DNA from: a virus
Lineage: Duplodnaviria; Caudoviricetes
Virus record (IMG/VR): IMGVR_UViG_3300031555_002578
Strand: one strand, 5' to 3'
Length of the DNA: 64,000 bases
Below, one piece after another: positions 6,620 through 48,500 of the stretch. A program made the position numbers and the translations under genes. The number at the start of each line of letters is the position of its first letter. Position 1 is the first letter of the stretch. Under the pieces are notes generated by a model. That model did no database searches. It was not told the origin of the DNA and saw only the letters and a program-made list of their open reading frames with translations.

Positions 6620-6715
6620 TCCCCTTCCATTTTTTTGTTCATGCTCTGCGGACTTGTGACCGCCATCGGTAGCATTAAAGCGGGACTTTTTGTGTCCCAC
6701 TCCACTCTGCTTTTA

Positions 6716-22570: not shown

Positions 22571-22644
22571 CGCAGGTTATGGAAGTGGTCTATCCGCTGG
22601 GGTTCATACCTCCAGAATCGCAGGTTCAAATCCTGCACCTGCAA
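22571..22644 (+). tRNA. tRNA-Met (CAT), initiator-like (C1:A72 mismatch)
   Basis: Cloverleaf CGCAGGT...TT-CAT-AC...GGTTCAAATCC...ACCTGCAA; no encoded CCA. Confidence 0.85.
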
Positions 22645-22711: not shown

Positions 22712-22783
22712 AGGCGGTTAGTTTAATTGGTAAAACGTCAGTCTCCAAAACTGAAGTACAGTGTTCAAATCACTGCCCACCTG
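22712..22783 (+). tRNA. tRNA-Trp (CCA); acceptor stem has two mismatches
   Basis: Anticodon arm TCAGT-CTCCAAA-ACTGA; T arm CAGTG-TTCAAAT-CACTG; acceptor AGGCGGT/CCCACCT. Confidence 0.8.
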
Positions 22784-37709: not shown

Positions 37710-37721
37710 GAGTTGATTTAT

Positions 37722-38903
37722 ATGGGGAGAGAATATTATTTAGATAATGCTGCTACAACTGAAGTTTATTCTGAAGTTATTGATACAATTTCTAATGTTA
37801 TGCGTGATGTATATGGAAATCCTTCAAGTATACATCGTAAAGGAAATCAGGCACAAGAAATTGTAGATAAAGCAAGACAAATCATTGCCGATTATATTAA
37901 TTGTGAACCAGAAGAAATTATTTTTACATCTGGTGCGTGTGAAGCAAATAGTTTGGCTATTTTAGGATACATGAAACAAAGATGGCATGGTATGACCGTA
38001 TTTTGTACATCTCCTATTGAACACAAATCTATTATATCTATTGTAGATGGATACGATTTTGAAACTTGGAAAGCAGATTCTTGTTTTGAAATGTTAAAAG
38101 TAGATGAGAATGGTTTCGTAGATAATTTGGATATGAATGCAATTTTGGCAAATATATATCAAGATGGGTATACACCATTTGTTTCTATTCAAGCTGCTAA
38201 TAGTGAGATTGGGACATGTCAAAACATTAAAGAAATTGCTGAAATTACGCACAGATACGGAGGTATCTTCCATTGTGATGCTACACAACTATTTCCACAT
38301 CAACGCATTGATGTAAAGAAACTTGATATCGATATGATGAGTATGTCTGGTCAGAAAATTCATGCACCTAAAGGTATTGGTTTTTTATATGTTAAAGAAG
38401 GTATTGAATTAGAACCTTTAATTTATGGTTCTCAAGAAAAAGGTATTCGTGGTGGCACAGAAAACGTTCCTTATATAGCAGGTCTTGCAAAGGCTATTGA
38501 ATTATTAGATTTTAAATTTAAAGTTACTGTAAATCCAGAGATTTTTCATGTAAGAAATTATATGGAACATCAATTAAAAAAGAAAATTAAAAATTGTATG
38601 ATTAACAATGATTGGGGCTGTTGTTTGCCAAATCTTATCAATATTTCATTCAAAGATATTGATGCTCAAGATTTAATTACTTTATTGGATGCAGAAGATA
38701 TTTATGTATCAGTTGGTTCTGCATGTAATTCTGGTAGCACAGAACCTTCTTATGTATTAAAAGCAATTAATGTACCTGACGAATATATTATGGGAACAAT
38801 TAGAATCACTCTGCCAGATGATTTTGAATATGATGATGTAGACTATATTGTTAGTAGAATTGCTTACTATATAAATAATTTAAGAATGTTTGGAGAGAAA
38901 TAA
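37722..38903 (+). CDS. iscS: Cysteine desulfurase (IscS/NifS family)
   Basis: YLDNAATT, GNPSSIH, FTSGACEAN, HCDATQ, SGQKIHAPKGIG (PLP Lys), GSAC (catalytic Cys). Confidence 0.92.
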   Translation: MGREYYLDNAATTEVYSEVIDTISNVMRDVYGNPSSIHRKGNQAQEIVDKARQIIADYINCEPEEIIFTSGACEANSLAILGYMKQRWHGMTVFCTSPIEHKSIISIVDGYDFETWKADSCFEMLKVDENGFVDNLDMNAILANIYQDGYTPFVSIQAANSEIGTCQNIKEIAEITHRYGGIFHCDATQLFPHQRIDVKKLDIDMMSMSGQKIHAPKGIGFLYVKEGIELEPLIYGSQEKGIRGGTENVPYIAGLAKAIELLDFKFKVTVNPEIFHVRNYMEHQLKKKIKNCMINNDWGCCLPNLINISFKDIDAQDLITLLDAEDIYVSVGSACNSGSTEPSYVLKAINVPDEYIMGTIRITLPDDFEYDDVDYIVSRIAYYINNLRMFGEK

Positions 38904-40358: not shown

Positions 40359-43300
40359 ATGCCTAGAAATGTGGATGGCGAAATCATTGTTGGTATTGAT
40401 ATACCTGCGTCAACCAAAATTGTAGAATCTGACATAAGAAAATTATTGCAAAATTTAACAACTCTTGAAGCAAAAATAAATCATGCTGATTTAACGGATA
40501 ATGCAAAACAAGAGTTGAGAAAACAAATAAATGATATTAAAAATTTAACAGCAAATGTGGAACATCTTGCCTTAGATGATACTGCTAAACAAGAATTCAG
40601 AAATGCTGTTGGAAAAGTAAATAATTTAACTGCAAACATACAAAATGTTAAGTTAGACCCCTCTTTTCAAAAAAATTTACAGACTGCTTTAAATGGTCTA
40701 ACTGGTCTTACAATTAATATTAGCGGATTCAATATTAATCCTAATGCAGTTAAAAATGCAGGTCAACAAGTAGGGAAATTAATAAGTGATTCTGCAATGA
40801 AAACGATTGACAGAGTTACTTCTGAAGGAATTGAGATTCCTTTTACTGTTTCTTCTCAAGGTAGCCAAGCATTTAAAGACCAAATGAAGAAATTAGTTGC
40901 TGATTGGACTAATAATAAAGGTGCTTTAACCGATATCAAGATTAATACATCTACTTCTTGGGATAATAAATTACAACAAAATGTTGAAAAATTAACTGGA
41001 GCAGTTGTAACATATAATAATGAACTTGGTGAAACAATTCAAAAACATATTGCTTTAAGAAAAATTGGTGAAGGTACTGATAAAAAAGGCAATAAAGTTG
41101 ATAAAATGGGATTTGTTGAAACAAGTGCCATTTATCGAAAAACTTTGAACGTTGCTTCTGTTGCAATGGACAAGTTTGAATCAAAACAAAAAATTGCTTC
41201 TGCAAGGATTGAAAACAATCTTAAAAGATTAGCAAGAGAATATTCTGACCCAAATGCATCTAAACCAATTAATGAACAAGGACACATTTCTTCTCTTGCA
41301 ACGCAGTATGATAAGGTAAAACAGGCTATTGCTGATATGCGTTCTGCAAGTAAAGATACTTTTGTAGATGCAGAATTAGAAGCAAAGAAACAGATTTCTA
41401 TTTTACAAAGTTTAGTAAAAGAATATAGAAATGCTGAAACTGTTGCAAGTAAAATGAAAGCAGTTGATATTAGTTCTGGTGTACAGATTGCAACTGCTGA
41501 TTTCAATAAACTTAAAGCAGATGCACAAGGTTTGGGCTTAGATATTACTAAATTAGAGAAAGCATTTGAAAATTTAGAAAAAACTCAAACTGCAAGTAAT
41601 TTAAATGTTTTTAATGATGCATTAAGAACTTCTCGTGCTGAATTACAAGCATTAAAATCACAAATCAATGCTGATAGCAAACAAGAAATTTTTAATGTAA
41701 AAAAACAAGGATTAACAGAAGCCATTAAAGAATGGAAGAAATTACATCCTGAAGCAAAAAATTTTAATAAAGAAATTGATGGTGTTAATACTACTGTTGA
41801 TAGTTTATTAAAAAGATTAAAAAAAGTATCTACAGATGCAGACCTTAGAGGAATTACATCTGTTTGGGAAATGTATTCTAAGTCTGCTGAAAAAGCATAT
41901 AAAGATACTGAAAAAATATATCAACTTGCAGACATAACTGCAAAAAATCTTCTTCATATTTCTGTACCACAGAGAGGTACAAATAATGTAATGCCAGTAA
42001 TTGAAAAAATGGCTAGAGATAATAATTGGTCAAATTTCAATGTTAGTGGTGTTCAAGAAGACGATGGCAAGATTAAAAAATTAACTCTTACAGTTACAGA
42101 AGCAACTGGAGAAATTAAGAAATTTAATCTTGAAAGAAGAAAAATGCAAAGTGGCGGTCAAAACTTTAATGGATTGCTCCAAGTTGGAGATGTACAAGTT
42201 ATTAAAACTGCTACTCAAGCACAATATGAATTAAATAAAGCACAGAGAGAATCTGATGCAAAAACATTATTCTCCAGACAAAAAGAAGCATATCAAGAAA
42301 TTTGGAATATCAGAAAACAACTTGCAAAATTGGATGAAACTGATGAAACTAATTATGCTCATGTTCAAGCACTTAAAGAAGAAGAAAAAGTCTGGAAAGA
42401 TATTTGTGAAAGTGCGACTTTACAGTTAAGACTTTATGAAGATATTATAACAGCACAAGAACGTTCTGTTGCTTTAAGTGAAATTAAAGATAAAGCACAA
42501 AGTAATATCAATATTCAACAAGGCAAAGATGCATCTAAAATTGCAAAAGCAGAACAACAAGAAGATATTGCAATTGCAAATAAATTACTTTCTGACCAAA
42601 AAAGAAAATATGAAGAAATTTGGAAGATAGAAAAGCAGATTGCATATGCAAGTGAAAATGGTAAAACAAATCTTGTTTCTCAATTATCAAGTAGAAAATC
42701 TGATTTAGAAAAAGAATATTCCATCATTTCTAAAGAATTAGATAAATATGATGCAATTATTGATAGAGAAGAACAATCTGCGAAATTAGCAGATGTTCGT
42801 GCAAAAGCAGAACATGAAATTTTATCTATTACTGCAAAAGAATTAGATAAAATGAATGATATTGCTAAAAAGGAAGAAGAACGTTTAGCAAAGAAAGCAC
42901 AATCTGACCATGATGCTAAACAAGCCATGTATGAAAAATTATGGTTTGATTATGATAATGGAAATCTTAATAAAGTAAAAACAATCGATGATAATGTAGC
43001 AAATAATACATATGCTACACAAATCAACGATTTAATTACTAAATATAAACAATATGGCTTAACTGTTGACCAAGCAGAAGATAAAGTAAGAGAATTACGT
43101 TCTACTTTGGCAACAATGAGTAATGCTGATAAGTCTGCTGAAGAAAGAATCAAAGCAGAAGAACGTTATCAACAGGCATTAAAAAAAAGTCAAAATGAAG
43201 TAAAAGTGTATTCTCAAAATCAACGTGGTCTTGCCACAGACCAACAGCGTTTGGCTTTGGCAAATACTATGGAAGCATTTTTACAGAAAAATACTAGAAT

Positions 43301-44607
43301 TACTGCAAAAGCAAGACAAGAAACAGAAATGTATATTGCCACTCTTAGAAATTTAAATTCTGAGATGACAGTAGTTGCTAAGAACGAAATTAATAATTCT
43401 TTTAAACAGATGCAGAATAATATGCGTGTTCTTGGCAAACTTGGCTATGCCTTAAAAGACCAGATGAAACAAGCAACTGGTAGTTTTGTTCAATGGTTCT
43501 CTGTAAGTAATTTGGTTATGAGTGGCATTTATCATGGTAGAAGTGCCATTACAGAACTTAAAGAAATTGATACATACTTAACAGAAATTAGCAAGGCTAA
43601 TAATGAGTTAACAAAATCTGAACTTGCAGATATTGGTAATCGTTCTTTTGATATTGCAAGTAATTATGGTAAAACTGCTACAGACTTCTTATCTGCTGTA
43701 CAAGAAGCATCTCGTGCAGGTTATAAAAACGCAGAAGGAATTGCTGAATTATCTACTGCGGCTCAAGGTGCAGGTGACATGACTTCTGATGTTGCAAATC
43801 AAATGTTAATTGCAACAGATAAAGCATATAAAATGAATGGTGCTGTTGATTTATTAAGAAATACCCTTGATGGTATGAACTTTATTACTAACAACAATGC
43901 CGTTAATATGACTGAATTATCTGAGGGTATGACAATTGTTGCATCCACTGCCGCTTCTTTTGGTGTTGGTGTTAATGAATTAACAGCAGCATTAGGTACA
44001 ATGTCTGCAACAACACAGCAAAGTGGTTCTGAAGTTGCTCGTGCTTTTAGGGCTATCCTCTTAAATATCAGACAAGTTTCTGATGAAGAAGAAGGAATTG
44101 ATGCAGAAGGTTTAACAAAATATGAAAGAGCATGTAATGCTTTAGGGGTTAAATTAAAAGAAACAAAAGATGGGGTTCTTTCTTTGCGTGACCCTATGGA
44201 AGTTTTGAAAGAATTATCTGAAGAATATGTTAAACTTGATGAAAGTGATATCCGTAGAACTAATTTACTGAATTCTGTCGGTGGTAAACTAAGAGCAACA
44301 CAATTAGATGCTTTATTACGTCAATGGTCTATGTATGAAAAGATGCTTGGCGAATATGAAGCAGGTATCGGCTCAATGGCAGTCGAAGCAGAAAAAACTG
44401 CTAACTCTTGGGAAGGTAGTTTAAATCGTTTAAGTAATACTTTTGCTGACACTATTGGCAATATTGCAAATTCTGATGGTGTGATTACACTCATCAATTC
44501 TTTAAATGAATTATTACAAATTATAAATAAATTAACTGATTCTTTAGGGTCTTTTGGCTCTATTGGTATGATTGGTTCTGCCATTTTAGGCGGTAAAGGG
44601 TTAGGAT
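40359..44607 (+). CDS. Tail tape measure protein, exon 1
   Basis: Coiled coils plus a TP901-type TMP core (ELKEIDTYLTEISK...TQQSGSEVARAFRAI...WEGSLNRLSN). Ends GGKGLG at a TAA that straddles the predicted 5' splice site. Confidence 0.85.
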
Positions 44608-45037
44608 AAACATAGTTTACTGTCCCCTTCTATAAGATTATATATAATGCCATATAATTAACATAGAGGGTGTTTTACAAGATTATTCGTTGATTGAGTA
44701 AACTAACCTTGGATTGAAATATCCTAAATTGTCGAATATCGGGAGAAGCCGTAATCCTAGGAATAGGTATCTGATGGATGAAATAAAAGCGTGAAAACGT
44801 TCCTGACGAGATATATTGAAGATGGTAGTCCCGACCCGTTATGCAAATATGATGAAAGTGTGATTTCAAGTATAACGGGCTACAGGGTGACAAGACATGG
44901 GTACACACAGGCATAATTGTGTGTTTCGCCACAACATACACTCGGCAACCTTGGGGAAAGCCCATGAGAAGCGAACAGAGAAACGAATAGGGTCTTCCCT
45001 ACTCTGCTTAGTACATATCACACAATAATACTTGGAA

Positions 45038-45074
45038 TAAAAAAGGTAGAGGATGTTACTCCCCTACCCTTTTC
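45038..45074. terminator. Bidirectional terminator-like hairpin inside the intron
   Basis: AAAAAAGGTAGAGG-loop-CCCCTACCCTTTT, directly after the stop of the minus-strand cargo ORF. Confidence 0.7.
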
Positions 45075-45281
45075 TTATTTTGCACCACAATAATATCCTT
45101 CTTTAAATCCCATTTCAAGTTTAAATAAAATTTCTGCATGAAGCAATTCTTCCATATCTAAGTAGGTATTTTCTGGAATGTTATTGATAAGTAATGTTTG
45201 AAGTTCTTGATAAATTGGGTCATTTTCAATTAAATAATAGTTTGTGGAATTAAGATAATTTTTAAAATCTTCTTTATACAT
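45075..45281 (-). CDS. Intron cargo gene, 68-aa hypothetical protein
   Basis: Strong AAGGAGG RBS 9 nt before the ATG; terminator downstream. Confidence 0.8.
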   Translation of the reverse strand: MYKEDFKNYLNSTNYYLIENDPIYQELQTLLINNIPENTYLDMEELLHAEILFKLEMGFKEGYYCGAK

Positions 45282-45362
45282 ACTACTTTCCTCCTTTTTC
45301 TAATCTTAATGTTTGCGAGGTTATGTATCTTTTAGAAAAAGGATTTACCATATAAAGATGAA

Positions 45363-45515
45363 TTATAAAAATAAAATGTTGGATAATGTTATACCTACAA
45401 TCTCGCAAATTTTAGCACACAATAATCCTAAGAATATGGCACTAAGTTTAATTAATATTTCTAATTGGGATTTTGTAAATTGTGATGTAAAATAAGTTTT
45501 AATTTTTTGAAGCAT
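45363..45515 (-). CDS. Possible intron cargo gene, 50-aa hydrophobic peptide
   Basis: MLQKIKTYFTSQFTKSQLEILIKLSAIFLGLLCAKICEIVGITLSNILFL; lies downstream of the antisense promoter but has no clear RBS. Confidence 0.45.
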   Translation of the reverse strand: MLQKIKTYFTSQFTKSQLEILIKLSAIFLGLLCAKICEIVGITLSNILFL

Positions 45516-45562
45516 AGATGTAGAGATTTGATATATTACAATTTTCCAAGGATTGTATTTAT

Positions 45563-45591
45563 ATTATACCATAAAAATAAAGCGTAGTAAA
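45563..45591 (-). promoter_or_regulatory. Antisense sigma-A promoter straddling the 3' splice site
   Basis: TTTACT(45591-86)-N17-TATAAT(45568-63) with the extended TG. Confidence 0.6.
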
Positions 45592-48500
45592 CTATGGAGC
45601 AGATGGTCAAATCTCTAATATTTTTAGCGAATATAAACAGGCTAAATTAGTGTCTCAAAGTTCAGCAAATTTTGCAAATCAAATTTTTGCTATGAATAAT
45701 GATACTTTTAAAACTAAAGATTTAGATGCTTTCGCTAAAGGAATCGGCAATGTAAATTCTACTGTATTACATTCTGCAAAATTAATGCAAGAAGGTAAAT
45801 TAAGTACCGATGATTTCAAAAAAGTAGTCGCAGGTACAGTTCCTAAATTAGATGATTTTGCAATGAATTTAAAGAACATAGCATTAAATATGGGTGCTAT
45901 GTTAGCAGTGATGATTGCTATTAAAGCAGTAACTTATATAGTTGATGAATTATATGTTTCTTTTGAAGAACAGAAAGAAATTGTTGAAGATTTGACTAAT
46001 AGTATTGATGAACTTCAATCTGAATATGACACTTTAAAAGCAGATGGTTCTGGCTCTAATGCAGAATTAAATTATCTGAAAAAACAGATTGATTATAAAA
46101 AAGATTTACTTGAAATTGAAAAAGAACGTCTTGCTTTAAAAGATATAGAAGAAAATATGCCAGATTTATCTAGTGATACTGGCACATCTGGTGGTCATGT
46201 TAATGCTACTTGGACACCAGATGATATTGCTGAATCTGATATTCAAGAAGATTTAAGACAACTTGAAGCAATTCATAATCGTATGGAAGATATGCGTAAG
46301 AATGGCACGAATAATGCTAGTAACTATGTATATCAAAATCAACTTGCTGAAGAAGCAAGATATATGCAATCTTTAAGTGATAATATTGGATATCTAAAAG
46401 AAGATTATGCTGAAATTGCCGAAGCAAAGGCTAAACTTGAAGAATATATTTCTGATGGTATTTTAAAAGGTTATAATGCTGAAAAAGCAAAAGAGCAAAT
46501 TATAGAATATCAAAAAGAACTTAATAGATTAGACCCCATTATTTTAAATGCTGAGATTGAATTAGGTACTGCAAATTTTGAAGATAAATATAATGCATAT
46601 TTAGATAAAATTAAAAAGGCTAATTCGATGGAAAATCTTGGGGTGTCTGAAGACAAATACCGTGATGTTGGATATGGTGGAACACTTATAAAATCTAGTG
46701 AATTAGATAGTCTAATTGATAAAAATAAAGAGTTAAACACCACATTCCAAAGTGGCGAAATAACTGCATCTGAATATTTTAATAGCCTATCAAAAATGTT
46801 TGAAAAAGGTGGGAAAATTGCAGATGCTTATGACAAACTTGATTTTGACCGTGTTGCAAATGAATCTGGGAAATGGGTTCTTAATAGTACAGACTATTTA
46901 GAAGAAACTGTTTCACAATTAGTTTCTCAAATAACAGATGCAACATATGAAGTAACAAATGCTTTTGCTCGTGGAGATATTTCTGTTAAAGAATATTACG
47001 ATTCTTTACAAGAAAGTGCTGATGCACAATTAAAAGCATTGAAGACAACTAATAAATTAACTATAGGAACAGATGATTTGGCTTATGCTACAGAAGATAG
47101 TAGTGAACAGACCAAACAAGCAGTAGAACATTATAATGAATTACACAATCAATTAGAAGAAATGGATATCATGGAACAATTGGTTGATGTGAATACTAAA
47201 TATGCTGACACATTAGATGATATTGGTACTGCAACAGAAGATATGTTGAATGATGCATCTATACAGAATTATGTATCAGAAGCATCTAATGCGGTTGCGT
47301 CTTACATGCAACAAATGCATTCCTATTATGAAACTACTGGACAAGATTTTCAGACTTTAGTTAATTATTTTAATGAAGTTGCAGGTTCAAGTTTTACAGC
47401 ACAAGAATTGTTATCTAAAAATAGTGCGGATATTATTTCTGATTATTTTGGGGATACAATGTCTGGCGTTACTGATTTGGCAACTGCTATTGCAACAATG
47501 ACAGGTGATGTTATTGCTGATGGTGCAAGTAAAATTGGTGATGTATTAACTGCATTGGGAGATACAATCTCTAACTTTGATTATACATTAAATATTAGTA
47601 CGGAAGGTTTTGATATCCCTTGGTCTGATATTATTACACTAAAAGGAATATCATTGCCACCAATAAACGCCGCAATTAATTTTGATGGTTCTGGAGAATC
47701 TGTTGGTGCATTAGGTGATGCAATTAAGGGTGTTGGGGATTGGGTAAAAACTGATGCTACTCAATTGGCATTAAAAAATATTATTGGCAATTTTGATAGT
47801 TGGAAACCTAAGAATAATGGTTCTGATTCTACATCTCCATATACTTCACTCGATTCACCTACTGATAAAGATTCTAGTGGAGGTTCTGGTTCTTCCAAAG
47901 ACCCTCATGTTGCAGAAATTGATAAATATAAAGAACTGACTGATGCAGTTGAAGATTATGACCGTCAATTAGAAAGACTTGAAAATGCCTATGACCATAC
48001 AGATAATGTAAAAGAACGTATTGGTTTGAAACAAGCAGAAATTCAGATTTATCAGAGACAGAAAGATGCTATTGATGCATTAAATAAGGCTCGTGATGTT
48101 GAAATTAGTCAAAATGTTGAATTACTGCGTAAGCAAGGATTTAAGATTACATATGACCCTAATACTGAACAATTGATAATTCATAATCGTGAACATATCA
48201 ATGACTTGTCTCAGGATATTATTGAAACATATGAAGACCTAATTGAAACAACTGATGAACTGAATGATGCCAATAAAGATTCTGCTGACCAATGGGATGA
48301 ATTAACTTATGCTATTGTTGATGCAGGTAAAGAGTTGACTGAACTTCGTATTGAACAATATGAAAAATATATAACAGAGCAAGAACATCTGTTAAAACTA
48401 CTTGCTAATCGTGACGATGCTCTGAAACAAGACCTTCCTATCTATGATGATATGATGGATGCTACACTAAAAATGTGGCAAGAACTTGTTGATGACGGTT

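Follow-up and report, generated by a model that had tools for sequence, protein, structure and literature searches.

A probable group I intron with variable cargo in the tape-measure gene of a phage of gut Clostridia

The stretch of DNA analysed here (the window) comprises 64,000 nucleotides of the IMG/VR virus record IMGVR_UViG_3300031555_002578 (Duplodnaviria; Caudoviricetes) and contains a tape-measure gene that is divided between two long open reading frames (ORFs). The upstream ORF (40359-44609, 1416 aa) closes at the TAA 44607-09 and carries the tape-measure core domain PhageMin_Tail in its residues 1100-1296 (PF10145, E 1.6e-19). The sole in-frame start of the downstream frame is the GTG at 45650, which is not accompanied by a Shine-Dalgarno sequence. 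The two frames are separated by an insert of 977 nt (44608-45584), in which an earlier note on this DNA had recognised an atypical group I-like intron. The exons were delimited as follows.

40359..44607, + strand: exon 1 of the tape-measure gene, 1416 codons and the first base of the junction codon
45585..51382, + strand: exon 2 of the tape-measure gene, frame open from 45581

Joining of T44607 to T45585 yields GGA T/TA GTA AAC (G-L-V-N-Y) in frame with the downstream frame and, as had been predicted, a product of 1416 + 1 + 1931 = 3348 aa. Other in-frame joins a few bases away give a product of equal length, but only the proposed join satisfies both rules for group I introns, namely an exon ending in U and an intron ending in G. 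The G+C content reaches 37-50% at ~44700-45050 as compared with 25-30% in the surroundings.

Searching for longer relatives of the end of the upstream ORF revealed 175 continuous proteins of 2479-5000 aa. The closest of these, P0001 (2619 aa), shares 77% identity with the last 300 aa of the upstream ORF and reads ...LKGGG-A-VNYTKSG... where the window reads ...GKGLG/(L)VNYGADG..., the alignment being gapless over the junction. In the DNA encoding P0001 (L010) there are zero bases between the two junction codons. This gapless continuity demonstrated that 44608-45584 is a discrete insert, the removal of which restores the frame.

The downstream part of the gene was compared with ~27 relatives (37-100% identical), in which both long exons remain open and exon 2 is called each time as a separate ORF of 1781-1910 aa. 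Reading of the DNA of eight relatives showed that the called starts (TTG, ATG) vary by locus and lie in unconserved sequence, and that conservation begins with V-(V/L)-N-(Y/S), directly past a conserved G. The variable starts together with an onset of conservation exactly at the splice site therefore point to a splice acceptor rather than to a separate gene start. An organisation as two separate genes, with an N-terminal protein of 1416 aa, a C-terminal protein of ~1910 aa starting at GTG 45650 and the 977 nt as an intergenic accessory island whose structured RNA has another role, would agree with the separate calling of all exon-2 relatives, with the lack of a fused form of this exon-2 type among the proteins found and with the independent genes that occupy the interval in relatives. 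This organisation is nevertheless quite unlikely: there is neither a Shine-Dalgarno sequence nor a conserved start, the continuous relatives align without gap over the break, and, as described below, the last G of the insert (omega-G) is conserved and covariation in the helix P10 ties bases of the insert to codons of exon 2.

Homologs of the window insert were found at the same codon in six metagenome loci, with identities of 94% (L062), 85-86% (L058 and L067) and 71-75% (L059, L063 and L065, hereafter the second clade). Including the window, the seven copies are 977, 979, 1063, 1062, 1898, 4436 and 6494 nt long. The first ~420 nt and the last ~60 nt are conserved, whereas the middle consists of variable cargo, and the intron appears to be inherited together with its exon-2 type. 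The following elements define the splice sites.

44604..44625, + strand: P1, exon GGAU (44604-07) paired with GUCC (44622-25), with the U44607-G44622 wobble at the 5' splice site
44611-21, + strand: P10 guide CAUAGUUUACU, inside the loop between the P1 strands
45582..45584, + strand: 3' half (GC) of P9.0 and omega-G45584, the last intron base, as read from the 3' ends of relatives

Both P1 strands, GGAU and GUCC, are unchanged in all seven copies. The guide CATAGTTTACT at 44611-21 is the exact complement of AGTAAACTATG at 45586-96. The exact 11-mer occurs only at these two sites in the whole window, once per strand; at up to one mismatch, 2.4 matches would be expected by chance across the window. 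In the window P10 comprises 11 bp, in the remaining copies 12-13 bp. In L058 and L067 the exon codon GTA is changed to TTG and the opposite guide base from C to A, so that a C-G pair is replaced by A-U in a compensatory manner; one wobble-compatible G-U substitution was also observed in P10. The 3' ends of 11 relatives read GCG/U in ten cases and GUG/U in one, with omega-G present in all of them. Moreover, GC 45582-83 is able to pair with GC 44945-46, which lies immediately 3' of P7, the position of P9.0 in group I introns. The splice sites U44607/A44608 and G45584/U45585 thus remain where the earlier note had placed them: the bases that it quoted (GGAT, GTCC, the guide, its complement and G45584) are all present, and its assignment of the guide and complement to P10 is strengthened by their uniqueness in 64 kb and by the compensatory change. 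The stop codon that it described at the junction is indeed present in the window, where TAA 44607-09 straddles the 5' splice site, but is not conserved in the second clade. There the exon-1 frame continues for 16 codons rather than stopping at the junction. The first 30 nt of these three introns also contain a degenerate duplicate of the guide, CAUACGUUACU, ahead of the working copy CAUAGUUUAC.

Three further candidates were rejected. A group II intron was dismissed because the insert lacks a 5' GUGYG, starts with AAACAU and ends with AAGCG, is AT-rich in its last 90 nt with no domain V-like hairpin and matched no group II family of Rfam. An intein is incompatible with the several stops in the exon-2 frame upstream of the 3' junction and with the end of exon 1 at TAA 44607-09. 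Finally, the gap of 977 nt here and of up to 6494 nt in relatives contrasts with the tens of bases crossed in translational bypass.

For the 5' part of the insert, a structure was written as a group I model on an alignment (A2) of the seven copies. The elements of this model, with the number of pairs changed on both sides among the copies, are given below.

44626..44670, + strand: P2 hairpin, 44626-33 with 44663-70, inner stem 44636-43 with 44652-59
44729..44944, + strand: catalytic core, structure counts from alignment A2
44729-33 with 44889-93, + strand: P3, 1 pair changed on both sides
44739-44 with 44829-34, + strand: P4, 1 pair changed on both sides
44748-52 with 44822-26, + strand: P5
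44756-59 with 44764-67, + strand: P5a, 1 pair changed on both sides
44775-78 with 44801-04, + strand: P5b, 1 pair changed on both sides
44789-92 with 44797-800, + strand: P5c with GAAA loop, 1 pair changed on both sides
44835-44 with 44870-79, + strand: P6, 2 pairs changed on both sides
44852-56 with 44865-69, + strand: P6a
C44883, bulged A44884 and G44885-U44888 with A44940-G44944, + strand: P7 candidate, invariant and placed by topology only
44898-44931, + strand: P8, 5 pairs changed on both sides
44932-39, + strand: J8/7 candidate CAACAUAC, in a position that fits group I topology
44945..45023, + strand: 3' side of the core (P9.0, P9, P9a and tail)
G44945 and C44946, + strand: 5' half of P9.0
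44949-68, + strand: P9, 1 pair changed on both sides
44976-80 with 45002-06 and 44988-92 with 44997-45001, + strand: P9a hairpin, 2 pairs changed on both sides
45017-23 (tail AUCACAC) with 44858-64 (P6a loop GUGUGAU), + strand: pseudoknot, A-U changed to U-A in three copies

Every helix of a group I core could be placed in the order P3-P4-P5-P6-P7-P3'-P8-P7', with a P4-P6 domain and a P3/P7 pseudoknot, and a second long-range pairing in the model joins UUCGUU with AACGAA. Standard pairs occupy 95.8% of the 826 cells of the 118-pair model. Changes on both sides were counted in 17 of the 118 pairs, compared with 0-2 when the 3' partners were slid by 1-3 columns, and none of 500 shuffles reached the observed covariation score. 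These compensatory changes indicate selection on the RNA and answer the covariation check that had been suggested for homologous interruptions. The P7 candidate (C-A-GGGU/ACUCG) crosses P3 in the manner of group I introns; its sequence departs from the usual GACUA/UAGUC. Crossing helices are beyond RNAalifold alone, in which forcing P3 and P7 together gave a positive energy, and P7 was therefore written as a pseudoknot. J8/7 plus P7' (AACAUACACUCGG) resembles the classical S element. An alternative P7 (CAGGGU with ACUCUG, 45001-06) was discarded, since two compensatory changes in L058 and L067 favour the hairpin CAGAG/CUCUG, which competes with it.

Most of the stems named in the earlier note reappeared in this model. 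The P3-, P4- and P6-like stems, the GCGT-GAAA-ACGT hairpin and the pairing GTGTGAT/ATCACAC exist and show changes on both sides in the homologs. The P2-like stem exists as well, its support coming from a register shifted by 2 nt in the second clade, in which both strands are changed (UUGCAU/AUGCAG vs UUCUAU/AUAGAG) in an alignment read by eye only. The long-range pairing TATTCGTT/AACGAATA is present, but just a 6-bp core of it is kept in the homologs. In contrast, the stem CATGGG/CCCATG loses two of its six pairs in the second clade and gives way to the covarying P8 and P9. Candidates for P7 and J8/7, both reported as missing, sit in variant form where group I topology puts them, and an undescribed splicing ribozyme, which the note had considered, is unlikely given that a place was found for each of the canonical group I helices. 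The term atypical holds in a weaker sense only: what departs from the norm is the invisibility of the intron to the Rfam group I model (RF00028), the long P10, the lack of a homing endonuclease and the position of the cargo between P9 and a 3' docking hairpin.

Rfam searches of the window and its relatives with gathering and E-value thresholds gave zero group I or group II matches for the window insert. RF00028, the check that had been proposed, matched nothing at E <= 10 in 44400-45800 (1401 nt) or in 44700-45030 (331 nt), which counts against a group I assignment. As a control, the same model was run on a sister intron, that of L009, which is unrelated but occupies the same site and shows the textbook motifs CGACUA and GAAGAUAUAGUCA. 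It reached only 13.2 bits against a cut-off of 50 when 600 nt were searched alone, being otherwise missed. This weak score of an intron with textbook motifs weakens the missing match of the window as evidence against membership. Further searches gave zero matches for RF00028 over two IMG/VR records, for the insert by blastn against 50,697 phage records and, in IMG/VR, for a 24-nt pattern of the conserved core that was searched exactly. When the ribozyme was compared by blastn with 401 genomes from the family to which Eubacterium plexicaudatum belongs, only two chance-level matches of 30 nt appeared. A new ribozyme class that merely resembles group I would account for the lack of an RF00028 match and for P7 and J8/7 sequences that deviate from GACUA/UAGUC and AAGAUA. 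It is extremely improbable, since every helix finds a place in the order and topology of group I introns, as do the P3/P7 pseudoknot, the bulged A, P9.0, P10, the U-G pair and omega-G, and since RF00028 is weak even on the sister intron.

A further conserved structure was found near the 3' end of the intron, together with a possible partner in the 5' part.

45537..45557, + strand: 3' terminal hairpin (P9.x), stem 45537-43 with 45551-57, loop UUCCAAG 45544-50
44708..44713, + strand: CUUGGA, proposed receptor for the loop of the 3' hairpin, between P2 and P3

The hairpin sits ~30 nt upstream of the 3' splice site. Comparison of nine homologs showed that the sequence of its stem differs in nearly every lineage with pairing always kept, whereas the loop motif CCAAG is invariant in all nine copies (the 7-nt UUCCAAG in seven of them). 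It is absent from L058 and L067. The proposed receptor CCUUGGAUU is unchanged across seven copies and complementary to UCCAAG of the invariant loop. From this complementarity we infer that the loop may dock on CUUGGA 44708-13 and, together with P10 and P9.0, draw the distant 3' splice site to the core.

Between the ribozyme and this hairpin the intron of the window carries a small gene on the opposite strand.

45075..45281, - strand: cargo ORF of 68 aa, antisense, without family match
45044..45075, strand not assigned, best formed on the - strand: hairpin and T-run, probable terminator of the antisense cargo gene

The 68-aa protein gave zero Pfam, PHROG and PADLOC matches and only weak leads, such as DUF6809, in Atlas; it is 53-96% identical to ORFs in the same place in L062, L058, L067 and L068. 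On the minus strand, 45044-75 folds into a 15-bp stem followed by a U-run, although the hairpin was not flagged by a simple terminator scan. The introns of relatives hold 0.5-5.5 kb of non-nuclease genes on either strand, in place of the 68-aa ORF or alongside it; among their products are a RelA/SpoT-domain protein of 392 aa with a match to the candidate defence family PDC-S33 (E 3.5e-115), a MazF/PemK-like protein, a weakly matching AbiQ/ToxN-like protein and, adjoining the 3' splice site, a minus-strand zinc-ribbon protein of 132-146 aa. No homing endonuclease domains were detected in the scanned or Pfam-annotated cargo ORFs of window-type introns and of introns at an upstream site (family G), nor transposase genes in the annotated cargo of window-type introns. 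The zinc-ribbon gene is common to two unrelated intron families, that of the window and that of L009, with 29-44% identity between them, and its product is not recognisable as a nuclease. Across the inserts of relatives, the candidate defence types are PDC-S33, MazF/PemK-like, NsnA/GmrSD-like (E 1.1e-29) and PDC-S60 metallophosphatase (E 5.7e-31). The positions of these genes are:

L059 3548-3952, L063 6448-6885, L060 3557-3997, L066 169-567 and L009 8401-9036, - strand: zinc-ribbon protein (132-211 aa), immediately preceding the 3' splice site
L063 3436-5493, L065 2313-4370, L060 and L061 1-3321, and L002 7719-11010: candidate defence genes in inserts

A search of 6 kb in L002 did not reveal the downstream exon.

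A terminator-like hairpin inside the intron raises the question of trans-splicing, in which the sense RNA would end at 45044-75, a second transcript would start in the cargo region and carry the docking hairpin and exon 2, and both would assemble through P10, P9.0 and UCCAAG/CUUGGA. The unusually long P10 (11-13 bp), the dedicated docking hairpin and the distance of up to 6 kb between core and 3' end would suit such an assembly, as would promoter-like sites on the + strand at 45102-31 and 45465-93. These sites, however, are not commoner than in shuffled sequences, and the hairpin 45044-75 is weaker on the sense strand, where it contains an A-C mismatch. Phage late transcription is, moreover, often resistant to terminators, and we know of no trans-spliced group I intron in bacteria or phages. 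Trans-splicing is thus very unlikely at this locus.

For splicing in cis, the following course can be proposed, all steps of which are deduced from the anatomy of the intron. The late transcript would pass through the intron, and the 5' ~420 nt would fold into the ribozyme (P1-P9). In P1 the end of exon 1 (GGAU) would be held by the guide strand through pairs that include the U44607-G44622 wobble, and free guanosine would attack after U44607. The distant 3' end would be returned to the core by three contacts, namely P10 (11 bp), P9.0 (GC 44945-46/GC 45582-83) and the docking hairpin (UCCAAG/CUUGGA). Omega-G45584 would then enter the G-site in P7, and the exons would be ligated as GGA-UUA-GUA. 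The expected junction in the spliced RNA is GGGTTAGGAT joined to TAGTAAACTATGG, and the expected product is one tape-measure protein of 3348 aa (...GKGLG-L-VNYGADG...) with the junction peptide GLGLVNYGADGQISNIFSEYK. The stretch between P9 and the docking hairpin would serve as a cargo bay, which holds the antisense 68-aa gene with its own probable terminator here and up to ~5.5 kb in relatives.

Several observations weigh against this interpretation. The seven copies represent only 3-4 independent lineages, so that independent events are fewer than the covariation counts suggest. P1, P7 and the small hairpin 44711-24 are invariant and were placed by topology alone; P1, P7 and the pairing of loop and receptor, being invariant, lie beyond the covariation test. 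A P7 of 5 bp could be obtained by chance. Furthermore, the T-run hairpin 45044-75 could halt part of the sense transcription, and transcription of the antisense cargo gene could disturb folding. Nevertheless, the uninterrupted relative, omega-G, P1 and P10 with its compensatory change, and the covariation-backed fold together suggest, with a probability of roughly 80%, that 44608-45584 is a group I intron which splices in cis and interrupts the tape-measure gene of a large phage or prophage from gut Clostridia, as the earlier note had proposed in its outline. A dead intron or plain insertion, with splicing lost, a disrupted tape-measure gene and a defective phage, is most improbable. It could be argued from the lack of a homing endonuclease and of an Rfam match, and from Eubacterium plexicaudatum ASF492, a cultured strain of the Altered Schaedler Flora. 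On its contig 4 (58000-77900, L069) a related exon 1 is followed by an insert that carries a GmrSD-like gene, whereas a long exon-2 frame is missing within 19 kb. The latter locus may be a decayed prophage or another kind of insertion. Against a dead element stand the two long exons, which are open in relatives down to 37% identity, the seven copies that were read with both ends and the maintenance of the ribozyme helices by compensatory changes.

The position of the intron was further examined in 55 loci related to the end of exon 1 (L001-L055), which were taken from IMG/VR, metagenomes and the genomes of Lachnospiraceae and other Clostridia. About 40 of the 55 stop at the position corresponding to 44607 of the window or within ~60 codons of it; two of them, L008 and L050, stop ~70-105 codons upstream, at a second site. 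The inserts fall into at least eight families unrelated in sequence, each with a conserved 5' part of ~400 nt, several of which carry classical group I R, Q and S motifs; the inserts may not all be introns. An nhmmer profile of the seven copies gave zero links to other insert families when run against all fetched loci. This codon of the tape-measure gene is an insertion hot spot.

In several relatives the gene is interrupted a second time, ~70 codons upstream (after ...EA.K), a place at which the ORF of the window is continuous.

L059 1346-~1900, L063 ~1746-2249, L067 4648-~6700, L062 3514-5232 and L008 from 6703: second-site inserts

The second-site inserts that were read (L008, L059 and L067) have core motifs of the GACUAU type, and ORFs of 426, 865 and 393 aa lie upstream of the window site in L067, L008 and L062, respectively, within the second-site inserts. 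The middle exon between both sites is annotated by gene callers as an ORF of 107 aa (L059, L063) or of 213 aa (L062).

Besides the intron, the window contains other features of note.

6648-6711, - strand: type-P5 twister self-cleaving ribozyme (RF02684, 55.6 bits vs a cut-off of 37.6, full model)
22571-22644 and 22712-22783, + strand: two tRNA genes (Rfam RF00005, 45 and 54 bits)
37713-38903, + strand: class-V aminotransferase, cysteine desulfurase-like (PF00266, E 3.5e-68), ~1.5 kb ahead of the tape-measure gene and unexpected beside a structural module

The intron has consequences for annotation and screening. The tape measure of this clade would be a single protein of ~3300 aa, which gene callers cut into two or three ORFs with arbitrary starts, and the intron itself is overlooked by standard Rfam screening. 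The covarying hairpin with its invariant loop and the P10 of 11-13 bp could explain how a 3' splice site kilobases away is found. As a tentative extension, which we regard as possible rather than probable, the family may consist of endonuclease-free group I introns that act as heritable cargo bays in an essential late gene of gut Clostridia phages. Such bays would carry exchangeable and possibly self-expressed (e.g., in the lysogen) candidate-defence and antisense genes, with P10 and the docking hairpin fetching a 3' site up to 6.5 kb away, at a hot spot shared by at least eight unrelated insert families. In a stronger form of this reading, the two halves would be transcribed separately and joined by splicing in trans. 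If the intron does splice, it would clearly exemplify a self-splicing intron that serves as a neutral bay for accessory genes in a phage structural gene, and would offer a naturally occurring design for group I introns that are very long and bear cargo.

Compared with known systems, the ribozyme is ordinary in kind and lies in an already reported kind of place, but belongs to a lineage missed by standard models. What is unusual is the cargo-bearing layout of the family, which lacks a homing endonuclease and places variable cargo between its core and a 3' docking hairpin that is conserved; the use of this site by at least eight unrelated insert families is likewise less usual. A literature search on group I introns with defence cargo or in Lachnospiraceae phages revealed nothing relevant. 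In prophage tape-measure genes of the Bacillus cereus group, the group I introns TMP-IVS1, IVS2 and IVS3 occupy three sites, unrelated introns are fitted to one site and some lack a complete homing endonuclease (Tourasse and Kolsto 2008, PMC2504315). The window intron agrees with these in being a group I intron in a prophage-type tape-measure gene with several insertion sites and a shared P1/P10 logic. The TMP-IVS introns are compact and of subgroup IA1 or IA2, whereas the window intron has no insertions of the P7.1/P7.2 type but a P5abc-like extension, escapes detection by RF00028 and comes from a family with 0.5-5.5 kb of non-endonuclease cargo.

The td, nrdB and sunY introns of T4 and those of SPO1 and Twort are self-splicing, reside in essential phage genes and have the U-G pair, omega-G, a guide and an early stop codon. 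The window intron shares the U-G pair, omega-G, the guide and, near the 5' splice site, the stop. In classical phage introns the ORFs are sense-strand homing endonucleases looped out of P6, P8 or P9, and P10 has a few base pairs; in the window the ORF is antisense, is not recognisable as a nuclease and is situated in the linker before the docking hairpin, and P10 measures 11-13 bp in the family. Tetrahymena-type (IC1) ribozymes possess P5abc and long-range loop-loop clamps of peripheral domains (P13, P14). The P5abc-like extension of the window intron, with its A-rich bulge and GAAA loop, and its long-range loop-loop pairings are reminiscent of these, although there is no relation in sequence and the contacts are others, namely P6a loop with 3' tail and 3' hairpin loop with the P2-P3 linker. 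Finally, the IStrons of Clostridioides difficile consist of a group I ribozyme fused to an IS200/IS605 element and are typical enough for standard models. Like these, the window intron combines a 5' group I ribozyme with non-endonuclease cargo between core and 3' splice site in Clostridia; unlike these, its family carries cargo that varies from copy to copy and includes RelA/SpoT-like, MazF-like, zinc-ribbon and small unknown proteins.

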